Shown one piece after another: positions 1,991 to 24,021 of a DNA stretch of 64,000 bases (positions are counted from its first letter, which is position 1; each line of letters opens with the position of its first letter). Under the pieces are notes generated by a model. It did no database searches, had not been told where the DNA came from, and worked only from the letters and a program-made list of their open reading frames with translations. A program made the translations under genes and the position numbers. The stretch comes from Pristiophorus japonicus (taxonomy: Eukaryota). The DNA is taken from contig NC_091978.1 in NCBI RefSeq assembly GCF_044704955.1, positions 375,100,001 to 375,164,000 on the forward strand. Reading direction: 5' to 3'.

Positions 1991-4900
1991 CTCCCTAGGA
2001 CCTCAGTAAGAATGAGTGGCTTGTTGGTGGGGGAAAGAGGGAAGGAAATGGAGTGATGATTCAACATTGAAGGCACTTGGAATTGAGTTTGAAGGTGAGT
2101 GACAAGAACAGAGAATAATGTTGTGCCTGTGACAAAGGAATGAACTGTGTCGGAGTACGAATTACTCCAAGGCACAAGCAATACTGAAAATTTTTATCAC
2201 CGCAGAATTTTATTTTAAATAAAATGATAACTATTACTAATCGCTACAACATTTACAGGAAAAATAGGAATTGCAAGACAAAGCGCGCTCCAGACCCCTG
2301 GGCTTTAGATACTTTACCCAGCAAGAGTTCTCATGTACAAACAATTGCTATTTATTTCCAAGTTTTCCATTGGCAACGTATTTTTGTTCATCACAAAGGC
2401 CAAACAGTAGTAAATAGTTACCGAGCTCGTAGCTTCCGTAATATTGAAGACTGCATCACACTGCACTTCCAATCTGAAAAATATTCCAATTAATCTTGCT
2501 GTGGAGGCTTCTGTGTTACCCCCCTTGTACTGGGTTCCATTCTCTGTGTCACTCCCCCTGTGCTGGGTCCCACTCTCAGTCCCACACCCCCAGTACTGGG
2601 TTCTATTCATATTGTAGAGATACTCTACTTGATATTTTACATGTTTCAAAGCTCAACTTAGTGTATAGCAACATAAAACATTAAATGTTAGCACCACAAG
2701 GACTAAAGCAGCCTCACATTAACTGGAGTGGGAGAAATTCAAGATGACATTCGACCCAAAGACTCGATCAGCTGTGATCAATCCCAAAGTGATCCTCTTC
2801 CTACCAAACCTCAAGTTCAAATATCTCCAGATGATCTCACCAGTTATTTATTGAAATTGTTAATTATACAGAATGATTTCCCAAGCAGTGTACAAGCTAT
2901 TATCATAACCAACAAGCCAATAATGAGTAATTGCTTTGTATAGACAGAGCTTAAGTGTCAAAGATATGTACTTTCTTTGTAAAGTGCAGATAAGACGAGA
3001 CATTTAGCCAATCAAACTGCTCTTTCTACAGACCACACAATCTCCCTCCTCCTGGATCCAATCCCACTGATCATTTCCTGAAGAAAAGTTTGACATGAAT
3101 ACTCCCTGGTTGCCAAAGGTAATCAATCAGGACTCCCCCCTCACTCTCCAATCCTGGGCCGATTTTCACAGATAACCCCCTTTAACCTTCTGTACTGGCA
3201 ACAGGCAATGGTCCATTCCCACAATGCGAGCACAGTAGCAATACCAGGAGTTCGAGGAAGAGGCTACTGGGTATGTTCGATTTAAATCTTTCACTTGAAT
3301 TGTGCAGCTTCCTTTGCCTCCAGCTCTGGCCTACTCTGCATCATCTCTCTCCACTCCACCAGTGCTGGCAGAGCAGTCAGCTGTTTTGGTCCTAATCCCC
3401 TCCCTTTTTGACCAAGCTTTTGGTCACCTCCTAACTCTCCCACCATTAACTGCTGTTCAATCTGTTTCCCTGCAACCCTGCCACCACTAAAACATTATAG
3501 CAAAAAGAGATTCTTGCCCGTGTTTAATTTTTTTAACTTTTATTCTGTATTGCTCGAAATGGCTTGTAAACGATTAACATGCAAGGCCATACAAAGCATA
3601 TTTCAACCAAAATCCAACCCCTTTTCCCTTCATCCATCTATCCAGTCTAGTTGTGATCTGGAACACGTGTCTGAATGGGTAATGAAAGCAGATTCAATAG
3701 TAACTTTCAAAAGAGAATTGGATAAATACTTAGAAGCAGGACTATGGAGAAAGAGCCGGGGGGGGGGGGGGGACTAACTGGATAGCTCTACCAAAGAGCC
3801 AGCACAGACAGGATGGGCCGAATGGCCTTTTGCTTTCAATTATTCTATGCCCGGAACAGACAAGATAATTAACCAAAGACAGTCTTTGTCCCTTCATTAG
3901 TTCATAAAGGATACAAGATAAAAAGGGGTGCAATATGATTGGAATTCCATGAGTTATGGCCAGTGCCGTGACACGTTTTGTTTGTATCCCATGGGCCATG
4001 TATTTCATTTATTCCACACATTAGGCAAGTAGTCAGAAGTAAAATAGTTAAAAGTAGAAATAAATGTTAATTTTAAATGGAAATTAAATTGGTTGTGCCT
4101 GTGATTTCACCATGTGTTCCATAGGGTTCCAGTAAGATTCAATTCCTACTAAATTAAATGAAATGCATCAAAATTGCAATGCAGACGCAACCCATTCGGC
4201 CTATACCAGTTCCAGCTTTCATTGGCAGTTATCTCCTCCCATTTCCTTGTGCTTTCCTCCTATGAAGTTATTTCTTCAGACTGCTACTTGTGATAAAGCA
4301 TTCCTTGTCCTAGTAACCATTTAAAAAATGTCCCAACTTCCCCCATTGCTCTTTGAGGTCAGCGCTGCCGCAGCCACTTGTTACTGAGTCAGTAGCCAGT
4401 TGGAACAATCTTTACACTATTTACCCTCAAAATCTTTCATAATTTGAGCTCATGCCATGGCCATGTGTTGGTGGGAAAAAAGCCTCAATCCTTCAAGCCT
4501 CTCAACTGTAACCTCTTATTCATGGCACCATTCTGGCAAATCTTCATTGTAGCATTTCCATGGCTCGAATACCCTTCCTGTAATGGAGGTGCCAAGGTCT
4601 ATCATTTCTCATTTGTGCATCATTCAAGGAAATTACAGAAGATTGCTGTTCAAACTAAACAGTCATCCTCTTCAGTTAGCTCATAAGTATTAAAATCAAA
4701 ACTAACACTAAAATGCCATTAAATAAAATTACTATACACTCAGACACAATTCAACGATATGATGTCTATCACAAATTTCTGAAAACCTCCAAAATGTTCT
4801 ATTTTAAACCAAAACTGAACAGGACTCAATTTGCACATTTATTTTATGTGCACAAACAGATTAATAAAGGAAACAGTAAACTCGATATTGATGGATTGAC

Positions 4901-5314: not shown

Positions 5315-5590
5315 TTAACCCTCACTCTTCTCCTTCTCCCTGGGCAACCTTCCCAACGTGTAAAACTCTTCATTCGGACGCAATTCAATGAGGTGAGCCA
5401 GACGGTTGGACATTGCAAAGAACGCAGTTATCGCGCAGATGTCCCAGGCATCCTCGCGGTCAAACCCGTGCAGTACCAGTGTTTTTAGATGGTCCTCGGT
5501 GATGTTTTCCGAGTTGCTCACAGCGAGAGCAAAATCCAACATGACACGCTGACGATCATCCAGGTCAGCCAAATGCCTGTTCACGACCAC
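5315..5590 (-). CDS. AhpD-like gene exon 5 (VVVNRHL...EKSEG*)
   Basis: Acceptor ttgtttcag, TAA stop at 5315-5317, followed by AT-rich UTR-like sequence. Confidence 0.9.
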   Translation of the reverse strand: MVVNRHLADLDDRQRVMLDFALAVSNSENITEDHLKTLVLHGFDREDAWDICAITAFFAMSNRLAHLIELRPNEEFYTLGRLPREKEKSEG

Positions 5591-8500
5591 CTGAAACAAG
5601 GGCAGAACAGATGGGCACGTCACCAACAAAAGGACACATTACTCAATTAGAAAGCTCTGCCCTTTTGCAAAGAGAATATTTCATTATTGCTCACCTGATC
5701 TGCCAGAATGGGATTTTTGGAATATATGCGGTGTAGAGCACTGTGTGCAATGACACAGTAGGGACAGTGATTATTCGCACTTGTGGCCACAATGATAAGT
5801 TCTCGATCTGCTTTGCTGAGATTACCTAGAGACAAATTTGAGGGGTCAGGTGGGAACAGAGAAAAAAGTTTAGACATGTTTCTTTTCCACCGGAATTTCA
5901 CTCATTAAAGGAATTAGACATTCCAATAGTTTTCTCACAAAATAAACCACTTCCTGGTTATAAACCACAAACATACTTTTGCCATAATTTACCTGGTAAA
6001 TATTGCCTAAAACCACCCCTTTACAGCACAGGACCCCAACCCATCCTGTCTGTAGCAACCCTTCGCAAAAGCAACCCAAAGCTATCCCCCTGTCCTGCCC
6101 ATAGCTTCCACTGCATCTTAAAAGATGTAATGGTTGCTGGGATTTTAGAATTCAGCTGTTCTTCTGGTAACAGCCACAATTTACCAAGCACCTACCCCCG
6201 TACCCTTAGCCCCCCCCCACCTACCCCCGTACCCTTAGCCCCCACCTACCCCCGTACCCTTAGCCCCCCCCCACCTACCCCCGTACCCTTAGCCCCTCCC
6301 ACCTACTCCGTACCCTTAGCCCCCCCACCTACCCCGTACCCTTAGCCCCCCCACCTACCCCCGTACCCTTAGCCCCCCCCCACCTACCCCCGTACCCTTA
6401 GCCCCCCCCCACCTACCCCCGTACCCTTAGCCCCCCCCACCTACCCCCGTACCCTTAGCCCCCCCACCTACTCCGTACCCTTAGCCCCCCCACCTACCCC
6501 CGTACCCTTAGCCCCCCCACCTACCCCCGTACCCTTAGCCCCCACCTACTCCCGTACCCTTAGCCCCCCCCCACCTACCCCCGTACCCTTAGCCCCCACC
6601 TACTCCCGTACCCTTAGCCCCCCCCCACCTACCCCCGTACTCTTAGCCCCCACCTACTCCGTGCCCTTAGCCCCCACCTACCCCCGTACCCTTAGCCCCC
6701 CCCACCTACTCCGTACCCTTAGCCCCCCCACCTACCCCCGTACCCTTAGCCCCCACCTACTCCGTACCCTTAGCCCCCACCTACCCCTTACCCTTAGCCC
6801 CCACCTACCCCGTACCCTTAGCCCCCACCTACCCCGTACCCTTAGCCCCCACCTACCCACGTACCCTTAGCCCCCACCTACCCCGTACCCTTAGCCCCCA
6901 CCTACCCCGTACCCTTAGCCCCCCCCCCACCTACCCCGTACCCTTAGCCCCCACCTACCCCGTACCCTTAGCCCCCACCTACCCACGTACCCTTAGCCCC
7001 CACCTACCCACGTACCCTTAGCCCCCACCTACCCCGTACCCTTAGCCCCCCCACCTACCCCCGTACCCTTAGCCCTCACCTACCCCCGTACCCTTAGCCC
7101 CCACCTACCCCTGTACCCTTACTCCCACCTACCCCCGTACCCTTAGCCCCCCCACCTACTCCGTACCCTTAGCCCCCACCTACCCCCCTACCCTTAGCCC
7201 CCACCTACCCTGTACCCTTAGCCCCCGCACCCTTAGCCCCCCCACCTACCCCCATACCCCCCACCACCTACCCCCGTACCCTTAACCCCCCCCCCCAGCT
7301 ACCCCCGTACCCTTAGCCCCCCCACCTATCCCCGTACCCTTAGCCCCCCCACCTACCCTTCGTACCCTAGCCCCCACCTACCCCTGTACCCTAGCCCCCA
7401 CCCCATCCACCCCCGTACCCTTAGCCCCCCCCACCTACCCCCGTACCCTACCTCGTACCCTTAGCCCCCACCTATCCCCGTACCCTAGCCCCCCACCTAC
7501 CCCCGTACCCTAGCCCCCCCCCACCTACTCCTGTACCCTAGCCCCCCACGCCCCGTACCCATAGACCCCCCACCTACCCCTGTACCCCTACCCCCCACCT
7601 ACTCCCGTACCCCCAAAAATGCTAGATAAATGCAAGTTAATTCTTTGGTCATACCTGATTCTTTGTTCATTAGGGCATTGTAGTACGCAAAGAACGCCCT
7701 GAATTCCACAGGCCGATAGGAAAGCGCTTTGAATATATTTGGCAAAAAACCACCCTGTAAAGCAGAAGTAATATTGACGATACACTGTATGCTTCCCCAG
7801 ATTATACATTCCTCAAAAGCAAGACAAAAAATGACTGGATGCCAATATTTTAAAAACTGTACAACAAACTCAATGGAGCGAGTGAGTGTGAGAGCAAGTG
7901 AAGGAAGGAAAGGAGAGAACATTTTCTCTCTCCCTCCCATTCCCTACGGTTTTAAATTTGAGAAACTACCGAGACAATAGCAAAGAGAAATTTGAAGTAG
8001 CCACCATAGATTTCCAAAGGAATGATCGTGCTGGATAAACCTCGGAATTCTTTGAGGAGGTAATGGACGTGATGGATGGTGAATTGCAGCGGATGTGGTG
8101 AACATCGACTGCAGCAAAGCCTTTGACAAGGTACCATACAGTTTACTGGAGAAGATTAAAGGGTATAGAATTAGGGGCAGGATAGCAAATGGGATTAAAC
8201 ATTGATTGGATGGGAGAATGAAACATTGATTGGAAGGGAGAATGAAACATTGATTGGAAGGGAGAATGAAACATTGATTGGAAGGGAGAATGAAACATTG
8301 ATTGGAAGGGAGAATGAAACATTGATTGGAAGGGAGAATGAAACATTGATTGGAAGGGAGAATGAAACATTGATTGGAAGGGAGAATGAAACATTGATTG
8401 GAAGGGAGAATGAAACATTGATTGGAAGGGAGAATGAAACATTGATTGGAAGGGAGAATGAAACATTGATTGGAAGGGAGAAATCAGAGTAAGAGTTTTG

Positions 8501-11500
8501 GGCGGTTTCTCCGAGTGGTAGGAAGTGGGTAATGGTGTCTCTCAGGGTTCAGTGCTGGGTCCACTTCTATTTACCGTGTGTATCAATGATTTGGATATAG
8601 GGGGAGGTGCTGAAATTTGCAAATGATACCAAACCAGGAGATACAGAAAATTCTTTACAAGACAAAGGGAAGCTGCAAAGGGCCATTGATCAGACAAGGA
8701 ATGAGCTAAAACTTGGCAGATGGAATTCAATGTCAGTGTGAGGTGATGCCTGTAAAATACCAGCAGCGATTAATGCTGTGATTGGGAGCAGGCTGGGTGC
8801 TGGGGAAGAGCAGGCCAATTTGGGGGACAGGTTCACGGAACATTTAAAGGCAGCACCTCACCAAAAGGCTGTTTAAAAAAAACGTAATGGAATTTTTGGT
8901 TGTATCACAAAATATGTAGACTATAAAAGCCAAGAGGTAACGATGAGCTGATGTAAAACCTGACTAGACCTCAGTTGAAGTACTGTGTGCAGTATTAGGC
9001 TCCACGCTAGCGGAAGGATATCGGGGCTTTAGAGAGAGGGTACAGCACAGATTCTCCAGGATGACGTCTGGTTTCAGGAAATACAAATATGCAGAAAGAC
9101 TGGAAAAATTGGGTCTTCCTTCGTTAGAACGCAGATTACGAGGCGATATGATGGGTGCTTAAAAAGATGAAAGGACGGGACAGGGGAAATAGAAGCAGTC
9201 TGTTTCCAGCAGGTGAGGGTTTCGAATGAGGGGCTGTAGAGACAAGATTAAATGTTCGCGTTTAGAACAGAGGGCAGAAGAGACCACTTGACAGAGAGTT
9301 GTGAGGCTGAGAGAGTCACTCCCAGGGTGAGTGGCTGATGCAGAAACTGTGTCGACATTCAAGATTAGATTGTCTCGGTGAATGAGGGGTGAAGGGATGG
9401 GGGCAGGCTGATCAAATGTGTTTAGAACCATTTAGAAACATAGAAAATAGGTGCAGGAGTAGGCCATTCGGCCCTTCTAGCCTGCACCGCCATTCAATGA
9501 GTTCATGGCTGAACATGCAACTTCAGTACCCTATTCCTGCTTTCTCGCCATACTCCTTGATCCCCATAGAGCTCACATGGAGCGTAAAGAGACATGGGCG
9601 ACTGGACCGGCTGGCCTGTTTCGGTGGGGTAACTGCTCTGGGAAGAGCAGTGCCGAACAGAACCGTCGCTTTGTGCAGCCTCATAGCGATACGGTATTGT
9701 TGGGTCGTACTGGCAACAGCCGATGAAACGCCAGGGTAGAAAGCTGCCTCCCACTGCAGCTTCCCCATTATTACTTTATAAATAATATTGGCACTTCATT
9801 CCACACTCTCATTTTTACACTCACGGAAACAACCACATTTCAGCCATATTCACATGGCTATTTTATGTGGTCAGAGATTTTATTTATTAAATATAAAAAT
9901 ACTTTGAACTATTTATTACATTAAAAAATCTAACAGGTGCTTCTTGATAATATTTACACTTGTACGTTGCCATTTGAGATTGGAACTTAAAACAATGAAA
10001 TTCTGTCATAGTGCAGAGACAACGCTGCACGGTGATAAAACAAATAAATATAATTTAACTGCAGTTGGTGAAATAAGAGGTTAGAATACCAACACAAGTT
10101 CAATCCAAAAGAAACGCGATGGTATAATTTGACAACAATTTCAGAATACAAATGACCACCTTCGTTTCAACCTCCTCCATCAGCTCAACAATGTCGTACG
10201 GCAGATCCTTTTTATATGGGACAGGATATCGCCCGATAGGTCGCTCGGATTTCCCAGACGTTGTGCTGTATTCCAGTTTGTGAGCAGCAGGTCTCACACT
10301 TGTCCATCTCGATGTTAACGCAACGAAAGACTAGAATTGGAAAAATCCAGTGAGCAGAGGAAATCTAAAAAGTCTTACGTTTTGAAATTTCACAACGGTT
10401 CTTCAATGCCGCGTACAATTTTAAAACCAATATCTAACTTTCCATAAATGAGATGCGGAATCAGTAGCTGCTGTTGAACAACGGTCATCTTTACAGTGGG
10501 ACTCCCTGGTCTACAACTTAAAGAGGGAATCTCACCATCATCGTCCTTTAGATAAAATAAGTACAGCTTTACCATTTTTCTTTAGGGAGTATTGATGGCA
10601 TCATCAGAGGAGCGAGAAACTATTTGATGCATTTACTGTGGCCCAAAGTGGAAGAGCAACATAAACCTGAAATAATCCAGGGAATTAACTGACCACTCCA
10701 ATTGGTATCAGTGGGTTTACGGGGAACAAAACTCAGCGAGGGTTCCAATTCTTCATCACTAGATCGCACGTGGACAATGGGGAGGACGACATAGAAGTTT
10801 ACAGCACAGAAGGCGGCCATTCGGCCCATCGTGTCCGCACCGGCCGACAAAGAGCTACCCAGCCTAATCCCACTTTCCAGCTCTGGGTCCGTAGCCCTGT
10901 AGGTTACGGCACTTCAAGTGTACATCCAGGTACTTTTTAAATGTGGTGAAGGTTTCTGCCTCTACCACCCTTTCAGGCCGTGAGTTCCAGACCCCACCAC
11001 CAACTGGGTGAAGAAACTGCTCTTCAAATCCCCTCCAAACCATCTACCAATTACTTCAAATTTATCCCCCCTGGTCGTTGACCCCTCTGCTAAGGGAAAT
11101 AGGCCCTTTCTATCCACTATATCTAGGCCCCTCATAATTTTATACACCTCAATGAGGTCTCCCCTCAGCTGACTCTGTTCCAATGAAAACAATCCCAGCC
11201 TATCCAATCTGTCCTCATAGCTTAGATTCTCCACTCCCGGCCATCCTCGTAAATCTCCTCTGTACCCTCTCCAGTGCAATCACGTCCTTCCTGTAATGCG
11301 GTGACCAGAACTGCACGCAGTACTCCAGCTGTGGCCTAACCAGTGTTTTATACAGTTCAAGCATAACCTCCCTACTCTTATATTCTATGCCTTGGCTAAT
11401 AAAGGCATGTATTCCGTGTGCCTTCTTAACCACCTTATCTACCTGGCCTGCTACCCTCAGGGATCTGTGGACATGCACTCCCAGGTCTCTTTGTTCCTCT

Positions 11501-14500
11501 ACACTTTTCAATATCCTACCATTTAATGTGTATTCCCTTTGCCTTCTTAGCTCTCTCCAAATGCATTACCTCACACTTCTCCGGATTAAATTCCACTGCT
11601 CTGCCCACCTGACCAGTTGATTGATATCTTCCTGCAGTCTACAGCTTTCTTCTTCATTATTAACCACACAGTCGATTTTAGTATCATCTGCAAACTTCTT
11701 AATCGTACCCCCTACATCATAGTTAAACAGCTGGACAATACCCCATCATCTTATATGACAAGTGGTCACTTGGACAAAGTGGGCTAGCAGCCACTACCAG
11801 TCTACACCTTCAGGAATAAAGGAGAAAATTAGGTGGTTGGGGGGGGGGGGGGGGCAGAAAAACTGTTAGCAAGAATTGAAAGGCACCAGAGCTGGTTAGG
11901 ATGTCTAATATACTCTAGCTAGGCCTATCCAGTCAGGTACCTAGCCTGTCCAATAGTGATGCTAAAACAATCATGCTACAGAAGTGATGCCGACACTGGC
12001 TTCAGAATTAGGGATGAAGTGAGCAATCGCTGCATGAACGGAGCATCAAATGTATTGAGCATCACATTATCTGGTGCTGCTATGCCCCAATACTACAGCC
12101 GCACCTAGTCCACGCCCCAACCCGCTAATAAATGAACCTCCAGTAAATTAACCAAATATTGTATGTTCTTAGAATCGTAGAATGAGACAGCAGAGGAGGC
12201 CGTTTGGCCCATCATGCCTGCGTCAGCTCTTTTTGCTAGAGCTATTTAGTTGATCCCATTCCCCTTTTCCATAATTGGGAGATTGATTTCGTGATTTCAA
12301 ATATTTTATAAGGAATATCTTGATGAGTATGCATCCTTAATCATGTGGTAGGAAGGGGGTATGTTTATGTTTGCATCTAAGTCGTTGGCAGTTTAATACA
12401 AGGAGGATTTAGATAAGTGCCTAATTCCTCTATATGTTGGGAAAGGCTATTAACCTTCAGAAAAACAAAAAGGGCCACTTTACAGCAAAATTCTAAAGGG
12501 TCAAATTGTGTTAAAAAGACAAGCCTGAAGGCTCTGTGCCTCAATGCGAGGAGTATTCGGAATAAGATGAACGAATTAACTGCGCAGATAGCAGTTAACG
12601 GATACGATGTGATTGGCATCACGGAGACATAGCTCCAGGGTGACCAAGGCTGGGAACTCAACATCCAAGGGTATTCAACATTTAGGAAGGATAGACAGAA
12701 AGGAAAAGGAGGTGGGGTGGCGCTGCTGGTTAAAGAGGAAATTAATGCAATTGTAAGGAAGGACATTAGCTTGGATGTGGAATCGGTATGGGTGGAGCTA
12801 CAGAATACCAAAGGGCAGAAAACGCCAGTGGGAGTTGTGTACAGGCCACCAAACAGTAGTAGTGAGGTTGGGGACAGTATCAAACAAGAAATAAGGGATG
12901 TGTGCAATAAAGGTACAGCAGTTATCATGGGCGACTTTAATCTACATATTGATTGGGCTAACCAAACTGGTAGCAATGCGGTGGAGGAGGATTTCCTGGA
13001 GTGTATTAGGGATGGCTTTCTCGACCAATATGTCGAGGAACCAACCAGAGAGCTGGCCATCCTAGACTGGGTGATGTGTAATGAGAAAGGACTAATTAGC
13101 AATCTTGTTGTGCGAGGTCCCTTGGGGAAGAGTGACCATAACATGGTAGAATTCTTTATTAAGATGGAGAGTGACAAAGTTAATTCGGAAACTATGGTCC
13201 TGAACTTAAAGAAAGGTAACTTTGATGGTATGAGGCGCGAATTGGCTAGATTAGACTGGCAAATGATACTTAAAGGGTTGACGGTGGATAGGCAATGGCA
13301 AACATTTAAAGATCATATGGATGAACTTCAACAATTGTACATCCCTGTCTGGAGTAAAAATAAAACGGGAAAGGTGGCTCAACCGTGGCTAACAAGGGAA
13401 ATGAAAGATAGTGTTAAATCCAAGGAAGAGGCATACAAATTAGCCAGAAAAAGCAGCAAACCTGAGGACTGGGAGAAATTTAGAATTCAGCAGAGGAGGA
13501 CAAAGGGTTTAATTAAGAGGGGGAAAATAGAGTACGAGAGGAAGCTTGCCGGAAACGTAAAAATTGACTGCAAAAGCTTCTATAGATATGTGAAGAGAAA
13601 AAGATTAGTGAAGACAAGCGTTGGTCCCTTGCAGTCAGATTCGGGTGAATTTATAATGGGGAACAAGGAAATGGCAGACCAGTTAAACAAATACTTTGAT
13701 CTGTCTTCACAAAGGAAGACACAAATAACCTTCCGGATGTACTAGGGGACCGAGTGTCTAGTGAGAAGGAGGAACTGAAGGATATCCTTATTAGACGGGA
13801 AATTGTGTTAGGGAAATTGATGGGATTGAAGGCAGATAAATCCCCAGGGCCTGATAGGCTGCATCCCAGAGTACTTAAGGAAGTGGCCCTAGAAATAGTG
13901 GATGCATTGGTGATAATTTTCCAGCAGTCTATCGACTCTGGATCAGTTCCGATGGACTGGAGGGTAGCTAATGTAACACCACTTTTTTTTTTAAAAAGGG
14001 AGAGAGAAAACGGGTAATTATAGACCGGTTAGCCTGACATCAGTAGTGGGGAAAATGTTGGAATCAAACATTAAAGATGAAATAGCAGCGCATTTGGAAA
14101 GCAGTGACAGGATCGGTCCAAGTCAGCATGGATTTATGAAAGGGAAATCATGTTTGACAAGTCTTCTGTAATTTTTTGAGGATGTAACTAGTAGAGTGGA
14201 CGAGAGAGAACCAGTGGATGTGGTGTATTTGGACTTTCAAAAGGCTTTTGACAAGGTCCCACACAAGAGATTGGTGTGCAAAATTAAAGCACATGGTATT
14301 GGGGGTAATGTACTGACGTGGATAGAGAACTGGTTGGCAGACAGGAAGCAGAGAGTCGGGATAAACGGGTCCTTTTCAGAATAGCAGGCAGTGACTAGTG
14401 GAGTGCCGCAGAGCTCAGTGCTGGGACCCCAGCTCTTTACAATATATATTAATGATTTAGATGATGGAATTGAGTGTAATATCTCCAAGTTTGCAGATGA

Positions 14501-17500
14501 CACTAAGCTGGGTGGCGATGTGAGCTGTGAGGGGGACGCTACGCTAAGAGGCTGCAGGGTGACTTGGACAGGTTAGGTGAGTGGGCAAATGCATGGCAGA
14601 TGCAGTATAATGTGGATAAATGCGAGGTTATCCACTTTGGGGGCAAAAACACGAAGGCAGAATATTATCTGAATGGCAGATTAGGAAAAGGGGAGGTGCA
14701 GCGAGACCTGGGTGTCATGGTTCATCAGTCCTTGAAAGTTGGCATGCAGGTACAGCAGGCGATGAAGGCGGCAACCGGTATGTTGGGCTTCATAGTGAGA
14801 GGATTTGAGCATTGGAGCAGGGAAGTCTTACTGCAGTTGTACAGGGCCATGGTGAGGCCCCACCTGGAATATTGTGTTCAGTTTTAGTCTCCTAATCTGA
14901 GGAAGGACGTTCTTGCTATTGAGGGAGTGCAGCAAAGGTTCACCAGACTGATTCCTGGGATGGCTGGACTGACATATGAGGAGAGACTGGATCAACTGGG
15001 CCTTTATACACTGGAGTTTAGAAGGATGAGAGGGGATCTCATAGAAACAGAAGATTCTGATGGGACTGGACAGGTTAGATGCGGGAAGAATGTTCCTGAT
15101 GTTGGGGAAGTCCAGAACCAGGGGACACAGTCTTCGGATAAGGGGTAGGCCATTTAGGACTGAGATGAGGAGAAAGTTCTTCACTCAGAGAATTCCCTGC
15201 CGCAGAGAGTTGTTGATGCCAGTTCATTAGATATATTCAAGGGGGAGTTAGATATGGTACTTACAGCTAAGGGGATCAAGGGGTATGGAGAGAAAGCAGG
15301 AAAGGGGTACTGAAGGAATGATCAGCCATGATCTTATTGAATGGTGGCGCAGGCTCGAAGGGCCGAATGGCCCCCTCCTGCACCTATTTTCTGTGTTGCT
15401 ATAACCCCATAATTAATGATCTCATAGTAAAGGAAGAGTGATCATAATTTGATAGAATTTCACATTCAGTTTGAGGGTGAGAAACTTGGGTCTGAAACTA
15501 ATGTCTTAAACCTAAATAAAGGCAATTATACAGGTATTAAGACAGAGTTGGTTAAAGTGGACTGGGAAAATAGATTAAAAGGTAAGATGGTAGATAACCA
15601 GTGGCAGACATTTAAGGAGCTATTTCATAATTCTCAACAAAGATATATTCCATTGAGAAAGAAAGACTCTACAAGGATGAACCATCTGTGGCTAACTAAG
15701 AAAGTTAAGGATGGCATCAAATTGAAAGCCAACACCTCCTCGAAAAATTCAATCAGGTTAGTCAAACACGATCGTCCCTTAACAAATCCTTGCAGACTGT
15801 CCGATTAATCCTTGCCTTTCTAAATGTGGATTTATCCTGTCCTTCAGGAATTTTTCCAATAATTTTCCCACCACTGAGGTTAGGCTGACAGGCCTGTAAT
15901 TACTCAGCCTGTCCTTTCTCCCTTCTTAAACAGGGGTACCACATTAGCAGTCCTCCAGCACCATGCCTGAATCTAAAGAGGACTGGAAAATAATATTTCC
16001 TCTTGCTTCGCTCTACAGCCTGGGTCTGGGGACTTATTCACTTTGAAAGCTGCTAAACCCCTTAATACCTCCTCTCTCACTATGTTTATTTCATCCAGAA
16101 TTTCACACTCCTCCTCGATAGCAGTATCTGCATCGCCCCGCTCCTTTGTGAAAACAGACGTTAAGTATTCATTAAGAACCATATCCACATCTTCCGCCTC
16201 CACACACAGATTATCCTCATGGTCTCTAATAGGTCCTACTCTTTCTTTAGTTATCTCTTGTTCTTAATATGTTTATAGAACATCTTTGGGTTTTCCTTGA
16301 TTTTACTTGCCAAGAATTTTTCATTCGCTCTCAACATTCCTAATATTCTTAATTTTACATCTGAACTTTCTATATTCTTCCAGAGATTCTACAGTATTTA
16401 GCCGTCGGTATATGACATAAGCTTCCCTTTTTTTCTTTATCCTCCCCTGTAAGTCCTTAAACATCCAGGGAGCTCTAGAATTATTATTCCCACCCTTTTT
16501 CTTTAAGGGCACATGCCTGAGCCCTCCGGATCTCCTCCTTGAATGCCTCCCACTGTTCCGACACTGATTTACCTTCAAGTAGCTGTTTCCAGTCCACTCT
16601 GGCTAAATCACTTCTCAACTTAGCAAAGTTAGCCTTTCCCCAATTTGGGACTTTTATTCCAGGTCGATCCTTGTCCTTAGCCATAACTACCTTAAATCTA
16701 ACTGAATTATGGTCACTAGCACCTAAATGCTCTTCCACGGATACCCCTTTCCATCTGCCCAGCTTCATTCCCCAAAACTAAATCCAGAACCGCCCCCTCC
16801 CGTGTTGGGCTTGTTACATACTGGCTAAAAAGTTCTCCTGAATGCATTTTAGGAATTCCGCTCCCTCTATACCCTTCACACTATATTTGTCCCCATCAAC
16901 ATTAGGATAGTTGGACTTCACAGAAATTTGCTCTTCTATCTCCCTCCCACTGTTTTTTTTTGGGGGGAGGGGTCCACAATACACACCCAGCAGTGTGATC
17001 GCCCCTTTTTTATTTTTCACTTTGACCCATACGATGATCCCGATAACATGTCATCCCTCCTCACAGCTGTAATAGTTTCTTTAATCAATACTGTGATCTC
17101 CCCCCCCCCCTCTTTTTACCCCTCTTTTTGCCCTGTCGAAATATCCTGTAACCAGGAATACTGAGCTGCCAAACCTGTCCCTCTTTCAACCATGTCTGTG
17201 TAATGGCTATAATGTCATACTCCCAAGTGTCTACCTGTGCTCTCAGCTCATCCGCCTTATTCGCTATACTCCTTGCATTGACGTATATCCCATTCAGCAC
17301 AGGAAGACCCCCTTGATTACTACTTACTAACCCGTTTCCTGTCTTACAGATTCACTTTTAATGTTCTTCCTATCCAATTTCAGCTTTACTTCCTTCCCTA
17401 TTGAATTTGTTCTTAGAATCCCATCCCCCTGCCAAGCTAGTTTAAATTCTCCCCAACAGCACTAGCAAAACTCCCCGTGAGGATATTGGTCACGGCGCTA

Positions 17501-19072
17501 TTGAGGTGCAACCCATCCAGTTTGTACAGGTCCCATCTCCCCCAGAAGCGGTCCCAATGCCTCAGGAATTTAAAGCCTTATGAGGAAAGGTTGAGCAGGT
17601 TGGACCTGTACATATTGGAGTTTAGAAGAATGAGATGATCTTATTGAAACATAAGATTTGGAGGGGGCTTGACAATGTTCACCTCGTGGGGGAATCTAGA
17701 ACGAGGGGGCATAGTTTCAGAATAAGGGTCGCTCATTTACAACAACAACTCGTATTTATAAAGCACCTTTAACGTAGTGAAATGTCCCGAGGCGCTTCAC
17801 AGGAGCAGAGATTTTTTTTTTTAAATGACACCAACACAAGTAGAAATGAACACAGGTGACCAAATGCTTGGTCAAAGAGGTTGGTTTTAAGGCACGACTT
17901 AAAGGAGGAAAGAGAGGTGGAGGGGTTTAGGGAGGGAGTTCCAGAGCTTGGGGCCACGGCCACAGAAGGCACGGCCACCGATGGTTGAGAAATTATAATC
18001 AGGGATGCTCAAGGGGTGTATGGTCTACTCCTGCTCATATTTCTTATCTTATGTAACCCTGCATATTTCCCCCCCTTAAAATAGTTATCACATTCTCTTT
18101 TGCATTCCAGATGACAACAACTCGCTACGTAAAAAATGTTTCCTCGTGCCATCCGTAGGTCTTTTGCAAAGCACCTTAAATCGGTGTCTTCTGGTTACCG
18201 GCCCTTCTGTCACTAGATAGAATAAATAAGGAGAAACTATCAAAACCATTCATGATTTTGAATACCTCCATCAATCTCCTCTTGTTTCTCCAGTCGCTCC
18301 TGAAATCTAGTAAAATTCTAATAAATCTCACCAGCAGCCTCTCAAACACTTTAAATCCTTATGATATAGTTGAAAATGTCAATCATATAGAACATTGCAG
18401 GGTAAAGTCCATCACAAACCAAGAGACTAAATGCCTCCAAATGACACACAGGCATGAGGGTAAGTGTAGAGAGTGGGAGCCCTGGTTAATGCACCCTCCC
18501 ATCAGGCTGGGAATCAGAGCCGGTGCTGCTCACCCCACAAGTCACTCATTGACTGCCAGGTGCCCGGCAAAGGCACAAAACTAAAATGTCTTTCTGTCCT
18601 TTCTCAGAATTTTACTTTCCCAGGAATTCTGTCCTAAAGCTGGTGAGAAATGTCTCTGTGTCGTCCTTCACCCAGAGCTGCTCCTGTCAGCGGCACAACC
18701 CGCAGGGAAAGGCCCCGGCCTGAGGCCCGGCACAGCAAGATCCCACAGACAGCCGCTCAATGTTACAGCGGCAGGAGCCCGGGGGCCGGGCCTGTGGTGA
18801 GCGGGAGCCCCGGGGACCGGGCCTGTGGTGAGCGGGAGCCCCGGGGACCGGGCCTGTGGTGAGCGGGAGCCCCGGGGGCCGGGCCTGTGGTGAGCGGGAG
18901 CCCCGGGGACCAAAGCCGGGCCTGTGGTGAGCGGGAGCCCCGGGGACCGGGCCTGTGGTGAGCGGGAGCCCCGGGGACCGGGCCTGTGGTGAGCGGGAGC
19001 CCCGGGGACCAAAGCCGGGCCGGCACCCACCTGCAGCCGGACGGCGCCGCTCACACCCCGGGCCCAGCTCAT
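5315..19072 (-). CDS. AhpD/CMD-family peroxidase-related protein, 5 coding exons: 19072-19031, 10330-10160, 7754-7655, 5825-5695, 5590-5315 (~239 aa)
   Basis: All four introns are GT-AG with phases 0,0,1,0 giving one open frame. The translation has [55 protein letters not shown] and [17 protein letters not shown], typical of AhpD-like uncharacterised peroxidase-related enzymes. Confidence 0.9.
5695..5825 (-). CDS. AhpD-like gene exon 4, carrying the CPYC..H catalytic motif
   Basis: Acceptor ttgtctctag, donor CAG|GTGAGC, 131 nt. Confidence 0.92.
6189..7612. repeat. C-rich minisatellite, unit ~26-30 bp CACCTACCCCCGTACCCTTAGCCCCC, ~50 copies
   Basis: Directly visible tandem array in intron 3 of the AhpD-like gene. 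Confidence 0.95.
7655..7754 (-). CDS. AhpD-like gene exon 3 (GGFLPNIF...NKES)
   Basis: Acceptor ctgctttacag, donor G|GTATGA, 100 nt. Confidence 0.9.
7935..9400 (+). mobile_element. Old CR1 LINE fragment
   Basis: Degenerate RT motifs (gcctttgacaaggtacc, cagggttcagtgctgggtcc, agacctcagttgaagtactgtgtgcag). Confidence 0.75.
8197..8480. repeat. 24-bp tandem repeat AAACATTGATTGGAAGGGAGAATG x~12
   Basis: Near-perfect array inside the CR1 fragment. Confidence 0.95.
10160..10330 (-). CDS. AhpD-like gene exon 2 (SFVALTSRW...MEEVETK)
   Basis: Acceptor ttccaattctag, donor AAG|GTGGTC, 171 nt open. Confidence 0.88.
10790..11720 (-). mobile_element. CR1 LINE 3' portion
   Basis: ORFs [19 protein letters not shown] and [11 protein letters not shown], plus a CR1-type 3' UTR. 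Confidence 0.88.
12420..15402 (+). mobile_element. Near-complete CR1 ORF2 (AP endonuclease + RT), inactivated
   Basis: NARSI..K, GITET, YRPP, MGDFN, SDH, DFQKAFD, PQ.SVLGP and FADD motifs; several stops and frameshifts; CR1 3' tail. Confidence 0.93.
15730..17570 (-). mobile_element. CR1 LINE fragment (endonuclease/linker)
   Basis: [21 protein letters not shown] and KSPDPG motifs in broken frames. Confidence 0.85.
18775..19021. repeat. 31-bp GC-rich minisatellite CCGGGCCTGTGGTGAGCGGGAGCCCCGGGGA x7
   Basis: Tandem array starting ~10 bp inside intron 1 of the AhpD-like gene. Confidence 0.92.
19031..19072 (-). CDS. AhpD-like gene exon 1 ([14 protein letters not shown])
   Basis: ATG in GGCGCCATG Kozak-like context within a CpG island. 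Donor CAG|GTGGGT is phase 0 and fits exon 2. Confidence 0.75.
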
Positions 19073-19508
19073 GGCGCCTGCCGCCTGCCGCCGCTTTCTT
19101 CTCCAGAGGGCAAACCAGACCGGAAGTCGCAAACCGCTTCCGGGAGCCGGGGAGCCGAGCTGCCGCGCCTGCGCGACAACCCGCCAATGCAGACCCGGAA
19201 CACGAACCCTGCTCCTCCCCGCGCTCGCTGCTCGGCCCGCGGAGATTTCCGGCACTTTCTGTTTCTATTTCAGATCCCAGTCTCCGCGGGATTGGCCTTT
19301 TGTTGTTTGGGTTTGGCGGTTGGCAGTAGCTTCCGGTTCGTTGGCAGCAGTCATTCTGGGAACGTGACCTCGGCTCAACCTTGCAACCCGGAGCTAAACC
19401 CCACCCTGACTTCCGGCGCTGTCCCATGACGTTTGTTGCCTTTGTTGTTGCTCCGGGGTTCGCGGAGCGGGAGCGGGGCTGATCCTGCGGCCGGCCGGCG
19501 GGCGGGCC
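19073..19508. promoter_or_regulatory. Bidirectional CpG-island promoter shared by the AhpD-like gene and SMIM19
   Basis: GC/CpG-rich, between two divergent ATGs. ETS/GABP-type CCGGAAGT at 19120-19127, ACTTCCGG at 19409-19416, further TTCCGG cores; CCAAT at 19184 and ATTGG at 19291. Confidence 0.8.
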
Positions 19509-22500
19509 ATGGCCGGTTACGGGGCGATGGCGGGCGGCGCGGGGATGGACTACACGGTGCACGAGGCCTGGAACGACGCCACCAACGTTTATCTGATCGC
19601 CATCTTGCTCAGCCTCGGCCTCTTGGTGTACGCGCGCCGGTGGGTAGCCCCGCCCATTGCTCCGCCCCCGGGCGCCTAGCCCCGCCCATTACCCCGCCCC
19701 TGGCACATCGCCCCGCCTCGGGACCGAGCCCCGCCCATAGCCCTGCCCCCGGGCGCCTAGCCCCGCCCATTGCTCCGCCCCCGGGCACCGAGCCCCGCCC
19801 ATTGCCCTGCCCCCGGGCACCGAGCCCCGCCCATAGCCCTGCCCCTGGGCACCTAGCCCCGCCCATTGCCCTGCCCCTGGGCACCTAGCCCTGCCCCTGG
19901 GTACCGAGCCCCGCCCATTGCCCTGCCCCTGGGCACTGAGCCCCGCCCATTACCCCGCCCCTGGCACATCGCCCCGCCTCGGGACCGAGCACCGCCCATA
20001 GCCCTGCCCCTGGCACATTGCTTCGCCTCTGGGCACTTAGCTCCGCCCCGGGCACCGAGGCCCGCCCATTAACCTGGCTCCGATCCCCGCTCATTGCTCC
20101 GCCCCCTTGCACCAAGCCCCGCCCTCTCAAACGTTAATCTCAATTGTGTATTTTAGGAATAAGAGGAAGATTATGAGAATATTTACGGTGCCTCCCACGG
20201 ATCCAACGCCTGAGCCCAACTTTTATGACAACTTACAGAAAGTTCGCTTACGACAGCAGTTGGACATGTACTACATCGGTGAGTCTGTTCTGCCAGTAAC
20301 GGTGTGGCAAAAATGTTTGAACTTTGAAAAGTCGAATCCCAGTGTATTTTGGTTAATTAATTTAATGGAAGAAATCATCTTTTATTTTTTTTAATTCATT
20401 CTCGGGATGTGGGAGTCGCTGGCGAGGCCGGCCTTTATTGCCCATCCCTAATTGCCCTGAAAAGGTGGTGAGCCTCCTTCTTGGACCAAGAAAGACCAAC
20501 CTGCATTTTTACAGTACCTTTCACAACCTCAGGATATCCAAAGCGACTTACAGCCAATGAATTATTTTTTGAAATGTAGTCACTGTTGTAATATAGAAAA
20601 TATGGCAGACATTTTACGACAGCAAACTCCCACAAACAGCAATGTGATAATGACCAGATAATCTGTTTTAGATTGAGGGATAAATATTGGCCAGGACACG
20701 CCAAAAGGCATTCGATAAGGTGCCACACAAAAGGTTACTGCAGAAGATAAAGGTACGCGGAGTCAGAGGAAATGTATTAGCATGGATAGAGAATTGGCTG
20801 GCGAACAGAAAGCAGAGAGTCGGGATAAATGGGTCCTTTTCAGGTTGGAAATCGGTGGTTAGTGGTGTGCCACAGGGATCGGTGCTGGGACCACAACTGT
20901 TTACAATATACATCGATGACCTGGAAGAGGGGACAGAGTGTAGTGTAACAAAATTTGCAGATGACACAATGATTAGTGGGAAAGCGGGTTGTGTAGAGGA
21001 CACAGAGAGGTTGCAAAGAGATTTAGATAGGTTAAGCGAATGGGCTAAGGTTTGGCAGATGGAATACGATGTCGGAAAGTGTGAGGTCATCCGCCTTGGA
21101 AAAAAACAGTAAAAGGGAATATTATTTGAATGGGGAGAAATTACAACATGCTGAGGTGCAGAGGGACCTGGGGGTCCTTGTGCATGAAACTCTTTTTGGA
21201 GTTTATCTGTAAAACATAAATTATTAAACCGTGCCACCCGACCTGGATGACACACCAGACATTTACAAGGCCCTTTTTTTTTTCTTTTTTTCTTTTTTTT
21301 TGTGTTTTTCTTTTTTTTGTGGTTTTTTTTGGGGGCACTAAAATCACATTTTTTCCCCAGTGCCCCCTATAAAAGGGAAGGGGGACACTAAAAGCACCGG
21401 CAATTAAAACAAATTAAACTTTAAAACGTAAAATCAAATTAAAATTTGGTTGCCGGGCGTGATGATGCACTCCAGTCCCTCCGGTGCCCACCTCTCGCGG
21501 AAGGCCGCGAGCGTACCGGTGGACACCGCGTGCTCCATCTCCAAGGACACCCTGGACCGGATGTAAGAGCGGAAGAGAGGCAGGCAGTCAGGTTGAATGA
21601 CCCTCCTTGTGCATGAATCCCCCCCAAAAAAAGTTTGTTTGCAGGTGCAGCAAGTAATCAGGAAGGCGAATGAAATGTTGGCCTTCATTGCGAGAGGGAT
21701 GGAGTACAAAAGCAGGGAAGTTCTGCTGCAACTGTATAGGGTATTGGTGAGGCCACACCTGGAGTACTGCGTGCAGTTTTGGTCACCTTACTTAAGGAAG
21801 GATATACTAGCTTTGGAGGGGGTACAGAGACGATTCACGAGGCTGATTCTGGAGATGAGGGGGTTACCTTATGATGATAGATTGAGTAGACTGGGTCTTT
21901 ACTCGTTGGAGTTCAGAAGGATGAGGGGCGATCTTATAGAAACATTTAAAATAATGAAAGAGATAGACAAGATAGGGGCAGAGAGGTTGTTTCCACTGGT
22001 CGGGGAGACTAGAACTAGGGGGCACAGCCTCAAAATACGGGGGAGCCAATTTAAAACCGAGTTGAGAAGGAATTTCTTCTCCCAGAGGGTTGTGAATCTG
22101 TGGAATTCTCTGCCCAAGGAAGCAGTTGAGGCTAGCTCATTGAATGTATTCAAATCACAGATAGATAGATTTTTAACCAATAAGGGAATTAAGGGTTACG
22201 GGGAGCGGGCGGGTAAGTGGAGCTGAGTCCACGACCAGATCAGCCATGATCTTGTTGAATGGCGGAGCAGGCTCGAGGGGCTAGATGGCCTACTCCTGTT
22301 CCTAATTCTTATGTTCTTATGTAACTCCCCTGCCCTTCTTTGAAATAGAGCCATGGGATCTTTTACGTCCACTTGAGAGGGCAGACGGGGCCTCAGTTAA
22401 CGGTACAACTGAGTGATTCACTCGACCCCTTCAGATGGCATTTAAACTCAATCACTTGGTGTGAGACTGGAGTCACTATAGGCCCAGACCGGGTAAGGAC

Positions 22501-24021
22501 GGCAGGTTTCCTTCCCAATGGGACATTAGTGACCCACTCGGGTTTTTGCGATTTACTAGCACCAGCTTTTCCAGATTTAAAGACAAACTGCGACAGTAAA
22601 TCAGGAAAACTGATGGAGACTTCGGCTCCTCCGCAGTCAGTACACTGATAAATGCTCCACTAAAGGTTAGACCCAAAGGGATTTGGTGTATTTGGGGTTT
22701 TAACAGCGTATTGACTGCTGAACAAAGGTTATGGGCCTGAAAATCTAACCTTAATTTTGTGCAGTGTGAACTTTATCCATTTTAATTAAAATTTTAAGAA
22801 ACTTTTCTTAAAGTTTATTCATCTTTATTTCAGGTTTGCCTTTTCCCCGTGTGAGAGCCCTGAGCTTTGTTTTGCCATCTCTTAACATTTTGGATGAGCA
22901 AGAATTTTCTCCAGTTGAATATTGGGAAAACTGAAGCCATTGTTTTCGGTCCCCGCCACAAACTGCGTTCCCCAGCCATTGACTCCATCCCTCTCCCCAA
23001 CTCCTGTCTGAGGCTGGACCAGACTGTTCGCAACCTAGGTGTCATATTTAACCCTGAAATGAGCTTCCAGCCACATAGCCACAGCATAACTAAGACCGCC
23101 TATTTTCATCTCTGTCACATCGCCCGTCTCCACCCCCTGCCTCAGCTCATCCGCTGCTGAAACCCTCATCCAGGCCTTCGTTACCTCCAGACTTGACTAT
23201 TCCACCACACTCCTGGCTGGCCTCCCACATTCTACCCTATGTAAACTAGAGGTGATCCAAAACTCAGGCTGCCCATGTCCTAACTCACCCATCACCCCCT
23301 GTGCTCACTGACCTATGTTGGCTTCTGGTTGAGCAATGCCTTGATTTCAAAATTCTCATCCTTGCTTTCAACTCCCTCCATGGCCTCGCCCCTCCCTATC
23401 TCTGTAACCTCCTCCAGCCCCACAACCCCCCGAGATGTCTGCGCTCTTTTAATTCTGCCCTCCTGAGCAACCCTGATTGTAATCGCTCCACCATCGGTGG
23501 CCGTGCCTTCTGTTGCCTGGGCCCCAAGCTCTGGAACTCCCTCCCTAAACCTCTCCACCTCTCTCTCCTCCTTCATGGCGCTCCTTAAAACCGACCTCTT
23601 CGACCCCTGTGCTAATTTCTACTTATGCGGCTCGGTGTCAAATTGTTATCACATAATACTCCTGTGAGGCGCCTTGGAAATTTCACCACGTTAAAGGTGC
23701 TATATAAATACACGTTGCTGTTTTGATTGGCGGCTTAGACAGCTTGTTGACAGCAGAACAGCTCACACTGGGGGAATCCCCACGAACTTCCGTTGAATTG
23801 AATTCAAGGTCGGAAAAGCCACAGTGATTGTGAGATCCTTGTGCGGAGGGTATTCGGGGCCAGCATTGACTGTCTTCACATTGCCGCAGGCCACAAATTC
23901 TGGGCCATCGTTTTTATTTTGGAATGTATTTGAACTAATCCTATTGTTTGGTGTTGTTTCAGCACGGAAGTATGAGCAACAGCAAGGGCAGTCGGACAGT
24001 GTGCAGCTTACAGTGGAGTGA
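19509..24021 (+). CDS. SMIM19: Small integral membrane protein 19; exons 19509-19639, 20157-20278, 23963-24021 (103 aa)
   Basis: Joined translation [58 protein letters not shown]...[32 protein letters not shown] is recognisably SMIM19. Introns GT-AG, phases 2 and 1. Confidence 0.93.
19647..20125. repeat. GC-box-rich degenerate tandem repeat (GCCCCGCCCAT core) filling SMIM19 intron 1
   Basis: More than 15 CCCCGCCC-like motifs visible. Confidence 0.85.
20700..22321 (+). mobile_element. CR1 LINE 3' half inserted in a Deu-domain SINE (SINE pieces ~20495-20699 and 22322-22405)
   Basis: RT ORFs 20687-21112 and 21597-22226; (TTCTTATG)n tail; SINE sequence resumes at taactcccctgcc. Confidence 0.88.
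21189..21603 (-). mobile_element. 5'-truncated non-LTR element (Tx1/L1-like 3' end) nested in the CR1
   Basis: 14-bp TSD TCCTTGTGCATGAA at 21175-21188 and 21604-21617. Encodes ...[25 protein letters not shown] second copy lies at 28319-28860. Confidence 0.75.
22890..23720 (+). mobile_element. L2-type LINE 3' fragment
   Basis: [21 protein letters not shown] and GGRAF...PKLWNSLP motifs; ggtgctatataaat tail. Confidence 0.82.

Follow-up and report, generated by a model that had tools for sequence, protein, structure and literature searches.

According to reviews, the relatives of AhpD in animals are the sestrins. A gene of Pristiophorus japonicus raises the question of whether animals also possess a complete AhpD-like enzyme with a CxxC motif, and where and on what such an enzyme would act. 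In the window, a stretch of 64,000 nucleotides of contig NC_091978.1, five minus-strand exons join into 720 nt encoding a protein of 239 amino acids with no internal stop (Table 1). The answer favoured here, with a probability of about 0.55, is that this nuclear gene encodes a dithiol/disulfide enzyme of the mitochondrial matrix, which belongs to the TIGR01926 branch of the AhpD/CMD family group and has an antioxidant or detoxifying role.

That this is a genuine shark gene follows from its structure. The introns (8700, 2405, 1829 and 104 nt; phases 0, 0, 1 and 0) all obey the GT-AG rule (4/4), and the translation is identical at 239/239 positions to the P. japonicus database protein P0001 (UniRef). 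Support for the splice junctions consists of this identical database model and of the reading frame, which is conserved across exons. The in-frame ATG upstream of the start is shut off by a stop. The intact, spliced five-exon gene described in the first-pass annotation is thus borne out by the GT-AG introns, the open frame and the identical model. A pseudogene, a contamination and a bacterial insertion were rejected, given four spliceosomal introns that contain retroelements and repeats, the identical model and conserved orthologues, among which si:ch211-175m2.5 in zebrafish.

Table 1. Features of the AhpD-like gene and its surroundings (positions in the window)
Feature	Position	Strand	Basis
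Coding part of exon 1; residues 1-14, opening half of the putative mitochondrial presequence	19031..19072	-	splice model
Exon 2; residues 15-71, remainder of the putative presequence, putative cleavage region of Y-S-T type, start of the core	10160..10330	-	
Exon 3; residues 72-104, conserved R85-P86-x-E88	7655..7754	-	TIGR01926 positions 27-58
Exon 4; residues 105-148, catalytic helix hairpin	5695..5825	-	CMD and TIGR00778 scores
Motif E113-x11-C125-P-Y127-C128-x3-H132, wholly in exon 4	5743..5802	-	translation, alignment
Coding part of exon 5; residues 149-239 with the stop codon, invariant N210-R211	5315..5590	-	TIGR01926 positions 104-178
First AATAAA past the stop codon, candidate polyadenylation signal	4838..4843	-	sequence motif
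CpG-island bidirectional promoter region, 436 nt, common to the head-to-head neighbour	19073..19508	.	sequence
Head-to-head neighbour, Pfam UPF0697; exons near 19509-19639, 20157-20278 and about 23963-24010	19509..24010	+	

The family of the protein is defined by profile and structural comparisons. It matches the TIGR01926 peroxidase-related enzyme profile over positions 3-178 of 178 (181.8 bits, cutoff 81.8, E 9.9e-54), and it also exceeds the cutoffs of TIGR00778 (AhpD core; 37.1 bits for the full protein and 39.2 for exon 4, cutoff 27.8) and of Pfam CMD (PF02627; 48.3 and 33.1 bits, respectively, gathering cutoff 23). The predicted model (pLDDT 73.1) has the all-helical AhpD fold and retrieves PDB 2PRR with a Foldseek E of 2.1e-14. 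In the PDB search, 2PRR is matched with an E of 4e-66, which, like the TIGR01926 match, lies far outside what chance would give. This Ralstonia protein (YP_296737) represents the closest subgroup (56% identity; Z 21.9 and rmsd 2.2 for 172 residues) and differs in that the shark gene is eukaryotic, spliced and extended at the N-terminus by ~45-50 residues. For this 2PRR-like subgroup, no function or activity was found in the literature searched. The closest characterised member of the subfamily, similar in fold and in its CxxC motif, is the bacterial DR1765 of Deinococcus radiodurans (6K40; E 4.4e-27, Z 19.4, rmsd 2.2 over 171 aligned residues), with which identity is 33%. According to a review (PMC8945050), DR1765 guards against H2O2 in a Cys-dependent manner and its mutant is H2O2-sensitive. 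Mycobacterial AhpD, the origin of the lipoyl proposal, is remote. The TIGR00777 profile of mycobacterial AhpD (cutoff 191.95) gives no full-protein match at E<=0.01 and 15.6 bits with exon 4 alone; the Mycobacterium tuberculosis enzyme shares a Glu/Cys/Cys/His relay borne by a two-helix hairpin, but the shark protein has Tyr in place of His132, carries the motif elsewhere along the chain and has 13% structural identity to 1KNC. The distinction from sestrins drawn earlier was upheld. These share the fold (Z 10-13) and, at the active site, Cys, Tyr and His (PMC11429811), but retain only the first Cys and are two-domain mTORC1 regulators, whereas the shark protein has one domain with CxxC; a sestrin paralogue is ruled out by a PA26 (PF04636) score of 18.7 bits, under the cutoff of 29.4.

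The catalytic signature E-x11-CPYC-x3-H, reported from the joined exons, is present from E113 to H132 and conforms to the AhpD-like relay Glu-x11-Cys-x-(His/Tyr)-Cys-x3-His; together with the profile and structural matches, it supports the assignment to the AhpD/CMD fold. Across 210 aligned homologues, the relay residues are conserved in 209 (E113), 204 (C125), 206 (Y127), 210 (C128) and 206 (H132) sequences; CxxC thiol chemistry is well supported. In the alignment, 56 positions also hardly vary between shark and bacteria, a hint of a specific substrate pocket. Concerning the substrate, PMC3141380 describes the AhpD relay and reports weak H2O2 reduction by PA0269, whose Glu/Cys/Tyr/Cys/His set is identical. 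Since a Tyr replaces His at the middle position and PA0269 activity is weak, the true substrate may be something other than peroxides. Organohalides or chloramines, from which the dithiol would strip the halogen as in a Bmp8-like reductive dehalogenase or an RclX-like scavenger of reactive halogens, are very unlikely candidates. The debrominase Bmp8, compared by fold and profile only, matches over its full length (Z 17.3, rmsd 2.6, 168 aligned residues, 20% identity; profile E 8.8e-08), and its proposed mechanism involves Cys oxidation to a disulfide (PMC5577590); RclX, of the AhpD family, protects from HOCl/HOSCN (PMC7950407), and a haloalkane dehalogenase adjoins a distant plasmid homologue. 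However, 2PRR and DR1765 are much closer than Bmp8 and RclX, land birds and reptiles retain the gene, and no halogen-related neighbour was seen among 98 neighbour proteins scanned.

The compartment is suggested by the N-terminal extension, which is unstructured in the predicted model. As first described, its initial ~33 residues are devoid of acidic residues, the first being E34; a putative cleavage region of Y-S-T type lies at about residues 35-37 and the conserved core starts at about R48, both in exon 2. Residues 2-31 are acid-free in 82/120 vertebrate rows, as against 2/3130 30-mers of the core (overlapping windows from related proteins), and have in vertebrates a mean net charge of +4.1 and low hydrophobicity. 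A net charge of at least +3 is found in 89/94 full-length rows, in 9/10 named invertebrate rows and in 8/9 protist-like rows. In six other sharks and rays, identity over residues 1-33 is 42-67%; outside this group, the extension diverges fast (9-30% identity) whereas the core keeps 73-81%. By composition only, this N-terminus has the properties of a presequence (basic, acid-free, amphipathic and poorly conserved), as had been proposed, and the fact that this composition is kept in an acid-free extension that evolves fast favours mitochondrial import. It is improbable that the enzyme is real but non-mitochondrial, the basic N-terminus being a disordered tail or an internal Met near residue 65 being the start of the main isoform. 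Database isoforms of 174-179 amino acids do start from that Met in catshark, Komodo dragon, coelacanth and Tetraodon, and 38/120 rows have an acid within residues 2-31; but the short isoforms drop conserved core residues 48-64 and look like truncated models, and the charge of nearly all full-length rows speaks for import. Upstream, the promoter region contains six CCGGAA sites, presumably of ETS/GABP type, as against 0.5 expected from shuffles, and one site at 19165-19174 that we take to be NRF1-like; sites of this kind are frequent in bidirectional promoters of housekeeping genes. The head-to-head neighbour is presumably SMIM19, and a motif search of the window for SLC20A2 or CHRNB3 exons gave nothing convincing.

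For a mitochondrial dithiol enzyme, the following mechanism can be proposed. The first ~35 residues would direct import and then be cleaved. C128, activated via the H132/E113 relay with Y127, would attack an oxidant, either a hydroperoxide or a disulfide in a partner protein, for instance a peroxiredoxin, and C125 would resolve the intermediate to give a C125-C128 disulfide, to be re-reduced by a matrix dithiol. The likeliest donor would be the dihydrolipoyl arm of 2-oxoacid dehydrogenases with DLD and NADH, an attribution that, given the rest of the mechanism, stays tentative and a little short of even odds; thioredoxin 2 would be the alternative. The net result would be a modest antioxidant or detoxifying activity in the mitochondria of most animals sampled. 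The lipoyl/DLD link of the first-pass annotation is an analogy across subfamilies, because the shark protein belongs to TIGR01926 and not to mycobacterial AhpD. Motif scans of 3223 ORFs at 80 bacterial loci detected no DLD, lipoyl, GcvH, AhpC/peroxiredoxin or TrxR signature, and no DLD, lipoyl, GcvH, peroxiredoxin or TrxR is annotated in plasmid regions (14 viewed, 13 annotated); a lipoyl donor may nevertheless act without being encoded nearby. A functional precedent is the fungal mitochondrial Ohr, likewise a bacterial-type Cys peroxidase with a mitochondrial presequence and lipoyl feeding (PMC5384416); its fold is unrelated, and its activity is demonstrated where that of the shark protein is inferred.

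The same bacterial neighbourhoods point to another kind of substrate. Animal mitochondria generate reactive enoyl-CoAs, and the protein might be a mitochondrial thiol enzyme acting on acrylate-type electrophiles or organosulfur metabolites and not on peroxides, for example by removal or repair of the thiol adducts that acryloyl- or methacrylyl-CoA forms, a reading considered unlikely. In 3/80 loci (Sneathiella, Alicycliphilus and a Burkholderiaceae MAG), the homologue is directly preceded by acuI, encoding acrylyl-CoA reductase; these are all three acuI matches in the set, and acuR stands ahead of acuI in two of them. A figure legend in PMC3017554 also names an AhpD/PF02627 gene among acuR-acuI neighbours. 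In five Rhodobacterales plasmid regions, a molybdopterin oxidoreductase precedes the gene (an S/N-oxide reductase in one annotation) and rhodanese occurs in three and acyl-CoA synthetase in two; conserved R85, R137, R211 and R229 could bind an anion. The acuI link is nevertheless restricted to these three loci, the commonest neighbour being msbA, a housekeeping lipid A flippase gene (nearby in 32/80, directly upstream in 26). Moreover, acuI-linked proteins show no special closeness to the animal clade, and the linkage also fits a generic stress role.

The family extends well beyond sharks. Unannotated teleost homologues, as mentioned in the first-pass annotation, exist among database matches, but the restriction to fishes was too narrow, since amphibians, reptiles, birds, molluscs, a brachiopod and a sea urchin have orthologues too; no mammal is among the 120 matches listed, and Atlas searches returned chordate CMD clusters only. 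Core identity to the 80 bacterial homologues is 54-61%. In trees, animals form one clade, and a fish- or vertebrate-specific transfer is rejected because vertebrates share their group with molluscs, Lingula and Diadema. The trees sustain animal monophyly and do not tell a transfer apart from ancient retention: no bacterial donor emerges as a supported sister to the animal clade, the backbone is poorly supported with unsettled bootstraps, the animal position relative to the root shifted between trees, and eukaryote monophyly received p-AU values of 0.264 and 0.611. Protist TIGR01926 genes in Halocafeteria and Galdieria are eukaryotic members in print, interpreted as gene transfers; that of Halocafeteria is induced 18-fold at high salt (PMC5447177), and the animal clade is untreated in the accessible parts of these reports. 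No paper on the animal gene was found in the literature searched, nor anything on it in the accessible parts of PMC13465657, PMC9676059 and PMC9332390.

Many animals thus retain, beside sestrins, a complete CxxC AhpD-like enzyme, with about 58% identity to bacterial proteins and apparently addressed to the mitochondrion. In fishes, amphibians, reptiles, birds and several invertebrates, its gene is catalogued with its domain yet unstudied; it may encode an overlooked mitochondrial detoxifying enzyme. If active as inferred, this enzyme would couple lipoyl electrons of the TCA cycle to detoxification in non-mammalian animals, as fungal Ohr does. A bolder view, quite unlikely as a whole, is that of an ancient, possibly early-eukaryotic mitochondrial enzyme preserved in most of the animal lineages sampled and lost in mammals, fed by lipoyl groups of dehydrogenases and clearing acrylyl-type electrophile damage or peroxides; if true, fishes, frogs, reptiles and birds would have a route of mitochondrial protection absent from mammals. 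A function for the animal protein would also inform a large uncharacterised bacterial subfamily.

The five-exon AhpD-like gene, described as intact and spliced in the first-pass annotation, is real, intact and conserved. All four introns are GT-AG with pyrimidine-rich acceptors, and the translation equals P0001, the UniRef protein of Pristiophorus japonicus, at 239/239 positions. Exon 4 carries E113-x11-C125-P-Y-C128-x3-H132, and exons 3, 4 and 5 match in turn consecutive stretches of TIGR01926. The gene start lies in a CpG island, head-to-head across 436 nt with a UPF0697 gene, which we take to be SMIM19. This gap contains six CCGGAA (0.5 expected) and one NRF1-like site, which lend weak support because bidirectional promoters often carry sites of these kinds. 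Introns 1 and 2 house some of the decayed LINE copies of the window, presumably of CR1 type.

Coordinates of exons, neighbouring gene and repeats in the window
Feature	Position	Strand	Remarks
AhpD-like gene, exons 1-5	19072-19031, 10330-10160, 7754-7655, 5825-5695, 5590-5315	minus	720 nt, 239 aa
UPF0697 gene	19509-24010	plus	
LTR-type retroelement	about 30000-33730	plus	RT, RNase H, integrase domains over several frames; CpG-rich at 31-32 kb
Decayed LINE copy	1-1850	minus	endonuclease/RT matches among the LINE copies
Decayed LINE copies	8000-9400, 12480-15400, 20684-21109	plus	endonuclease/RT matches among the LINE copies
Minisatellite, 24-25-mer	6189-7612		intron 3
Minisatellite, 24-mer	8197-8482		intron 2
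Minisatellite, 31-mer	18774-19021		just after exon 1
Minisatellite, 32-mer	39192-41774		81 copies

The AhpD/CMD signature proposed earlier, and the separation from sestrins, were both upheld by profile searches: the full shark protein scores above the Pfam CMD cutoff and reaches 181.8 bits with TIGR01926 (cutoff 81.8) and 37.1 bits with TIGR00778 (cutoff 27.8), while it falls below the PA26/sestrin Pfam cutoff and has no reported match to TIGR00777 (mycobacterial AhpD). By these profiles it is a TIGR01926 member, not a mycobacterial AhpD. Its top PDB sequence match is Ralstonia 2PRR (E 4e-66), followed by 3C1L, 2PFX, 2OYO and 6K40. The AlphaFold model (mean pLDDT 73.1; low at residues 1-50 and 217-239) aligns at Z 21.9 with 2PRR, 19.4 with 6K40, 17.3 with Bmp8, 17.1 with Streptococcus pneumoniae AhpD, 12.1 with Mycobacterium tuberculosis AhpD and 10-13 with Sestrin2.

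Searching with the exon 5 protein gave 1326 matches, 120 of them listed; the named rows among these 120 come from sharks, rays, chimaera, ray-finned fishes, coelacanth, amphibians, turtles, a crocodile, squamates and birds, with no mammal among them, and 114 of the 120 retain the full motif. Many bear the name of the zebrafish orthologue, si:ch211-175m2.5; the unannotated teleost homologues mentioned in the first-pass annotation do exist. Several full-length rows sit on contigs of 1.1-1.6 kb, which suggests spliced transcripts. A search from abalone yielded 10 further named proteins, all from invertebrates, and a profile from four eukaryote-like rows found Reticulomyxa filosa and a EukProt entry. 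The gene is not confined to fishes, with orthologues also in amphibians, reptiles, birds, molluscs, Lingula and Diadema. Human SMIM19 presumably stands head-to-head with SLC20A2, a pairing that would fit mammalian loss of the gene.

Squamates (Varanus P0018, Python P0056 and the N-terminal half of Erythrolamprus P0041) seem to carry a second paralogue in tandem, with Thr replacing the first Cys (TxxC) while the second is retained; P0041 is apparently a fusion of both copies in one gene model. The invertebrate-like P0133, perhaps a fused model, combines zinc-finger-looking N-terminal repeats with a degenerate copy in which the second Cys is missing. Three divergent mollusc-like paralogues (P0145, P0346, P0357), in which the CxxC interior is altered (Tyr replaced), suggest lineage-specific duplications.

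Databases label the animal gene 'uncharacterized' or 'CMD-like domain-containing'. In the main text of open-licence PMC papers and bioRxiv preprints, ch211-175m2.5 is not mentioned, and the top literature matches include no study of the animal gene. Eukaryotic TIGR01926 members in print are Halocafeteria, with MMETSP homologues (PMC5447177), and Galdieria (bioRxiv 10.1101/526111); the parts consulted of a sestrin review treating bacterial AhpD-like ancestors (PMC11429811) do not mention the animal gene.

Trees do not separate retention from transfer: animals form one clade, without a supported sister. With 57 rows (95 minus 38 long-branch or redundant ones), 16 animal rows group at 100/100; with 60 (8 more dropped, 11 added), 13 animals group at 98/87, sister to the remaining subgroup; in both trees the bootstraps stayed short of convergence. 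Neither a group of animals with rhizarian-like rows (p 0.264) nor one of all eukaryote-like rows together (p 0.611; constrained tree 7.19 lnL better than the free tree) was rejected by AU tests, long branches being in play and some rows eukaryotic by appearance alone. Judged from this clade and these p values, the gene is older than the protostome-deuterostome split, and ancient retention and transfer are equally open as origins.

The basic, acid-free N-terminus noted earlier recurs across vertebrates. In the shark the first acid is E34; residues 2-31 are acid-free in 82/120 listed vertebrate rows (77/94 full-length), against 2/3130 overlapping core 30-mers, with a mean net charge of +4.1 and a low mean peak hydrophobicity, unlike a signal peptide. 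Named invertebrate N-termini are acid-free in 6/10 and carry net +3 or more in 9/10; protist-like ones, 3/9 and 8/9. An aromatic/Leu/Cys-small-Ser/Thr pattern, loose and without control, precedes the core in 74/94 vertebrate and 4/10 invertebrate rows, and sequence divergence is far faster in the extension than in the core. By its sequence the protein is probably mitochondrial; an enzyme located elsewhere in the cell is decidedly unlikely.

An alignment of 210 rows (120 from vertebrates, 10 from invertebrates and 80 from bacteria) has C128, N210 and R211 in every row, E113 in 209, Y127 and H132 in 206 and C125 in 204; 56 nearly invariant positions are common to the three groups. Mycobacterial AhpD attacks through its second Cys, and the invariance of C128 fits such a role. 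The relay positions of AhpD and PA0269 correspond to E113/C125/Y127/C128/H132 (PMC3141380).

The bacterial rows are the best 80 of at least 599 GTDB matches, mostly Betaproteobacteria and 54-61% identical to the shark core. Among 3223 ORFs (90 aa or more) at these loci, 71 of which span 2 kb or more upstream, regex motifs for DLD, lipoyl, GcvH, peroxiredoxin and TrxR found nothing. The usual neighbour is msbA (32/80); two loci labelled uncultured Bifidobacterium show a betaproteobacterial dnaE-msbA-gene order and are probably mis-binned contigs. An electrophile or organosulfur enzyme, though unlikely, is supported by a position directly after acuI in 3 of 80 loci (acuR also in 2), an AhpD-family gene being named among neighbours of acuR-acuI pairs (PMC3017554), and by five of 14 plasmid regions viewed (89 records matched), all from Rhodobacterales, with a molybdopterin oxidoreductase directly upstream and, downstream, rhodanese in three and acyl-CoA synthetase in two. 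In the other viewed regions neighbours vary, one being without annotation. In the acuR-acuI-peroxidase-related order (L034, L035, L069; Alpha- and Betaproteobacteria), the peroxidase-related gene occupies the slot of dddL in Rhodobacter sphaeroides. The recurring Rhodobacterales plasmid operon (L081-L083, L085, L086) comprises 2-hydroxyacid dehydrogenase, class II aldolase, FGGY kinase, acetolactate synthase (4/5), molybdopterin oxidoreductase, peroxidase-related enzyme, rhodanese and acyl-CoA synthetase. Bmp8 (PMC5577590) and RclX (PMC7950407) show halogen chemistry on the same scaffold, the basis of a further rival reading that is very unlikely.

We infer instead that the AhpD-like protein would be a dithiol enzyme of the mitochondrial matrix with oxidants as its substrates, a reading to which we give a probability of roughly 0.55. 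DR1765 protects against H2O2 in a manner requiring its Cys pair, and mycobacterial AhpD is fed by lipoyl (PMC8945050); fungal Ohr is a precedent for a lipoyl-fed mitochondrial peroxidase (PMC5384416). If the protein is such an enzyme, lipoyl may, by analogy and at somewhat less than an even chance, be its electron donor.
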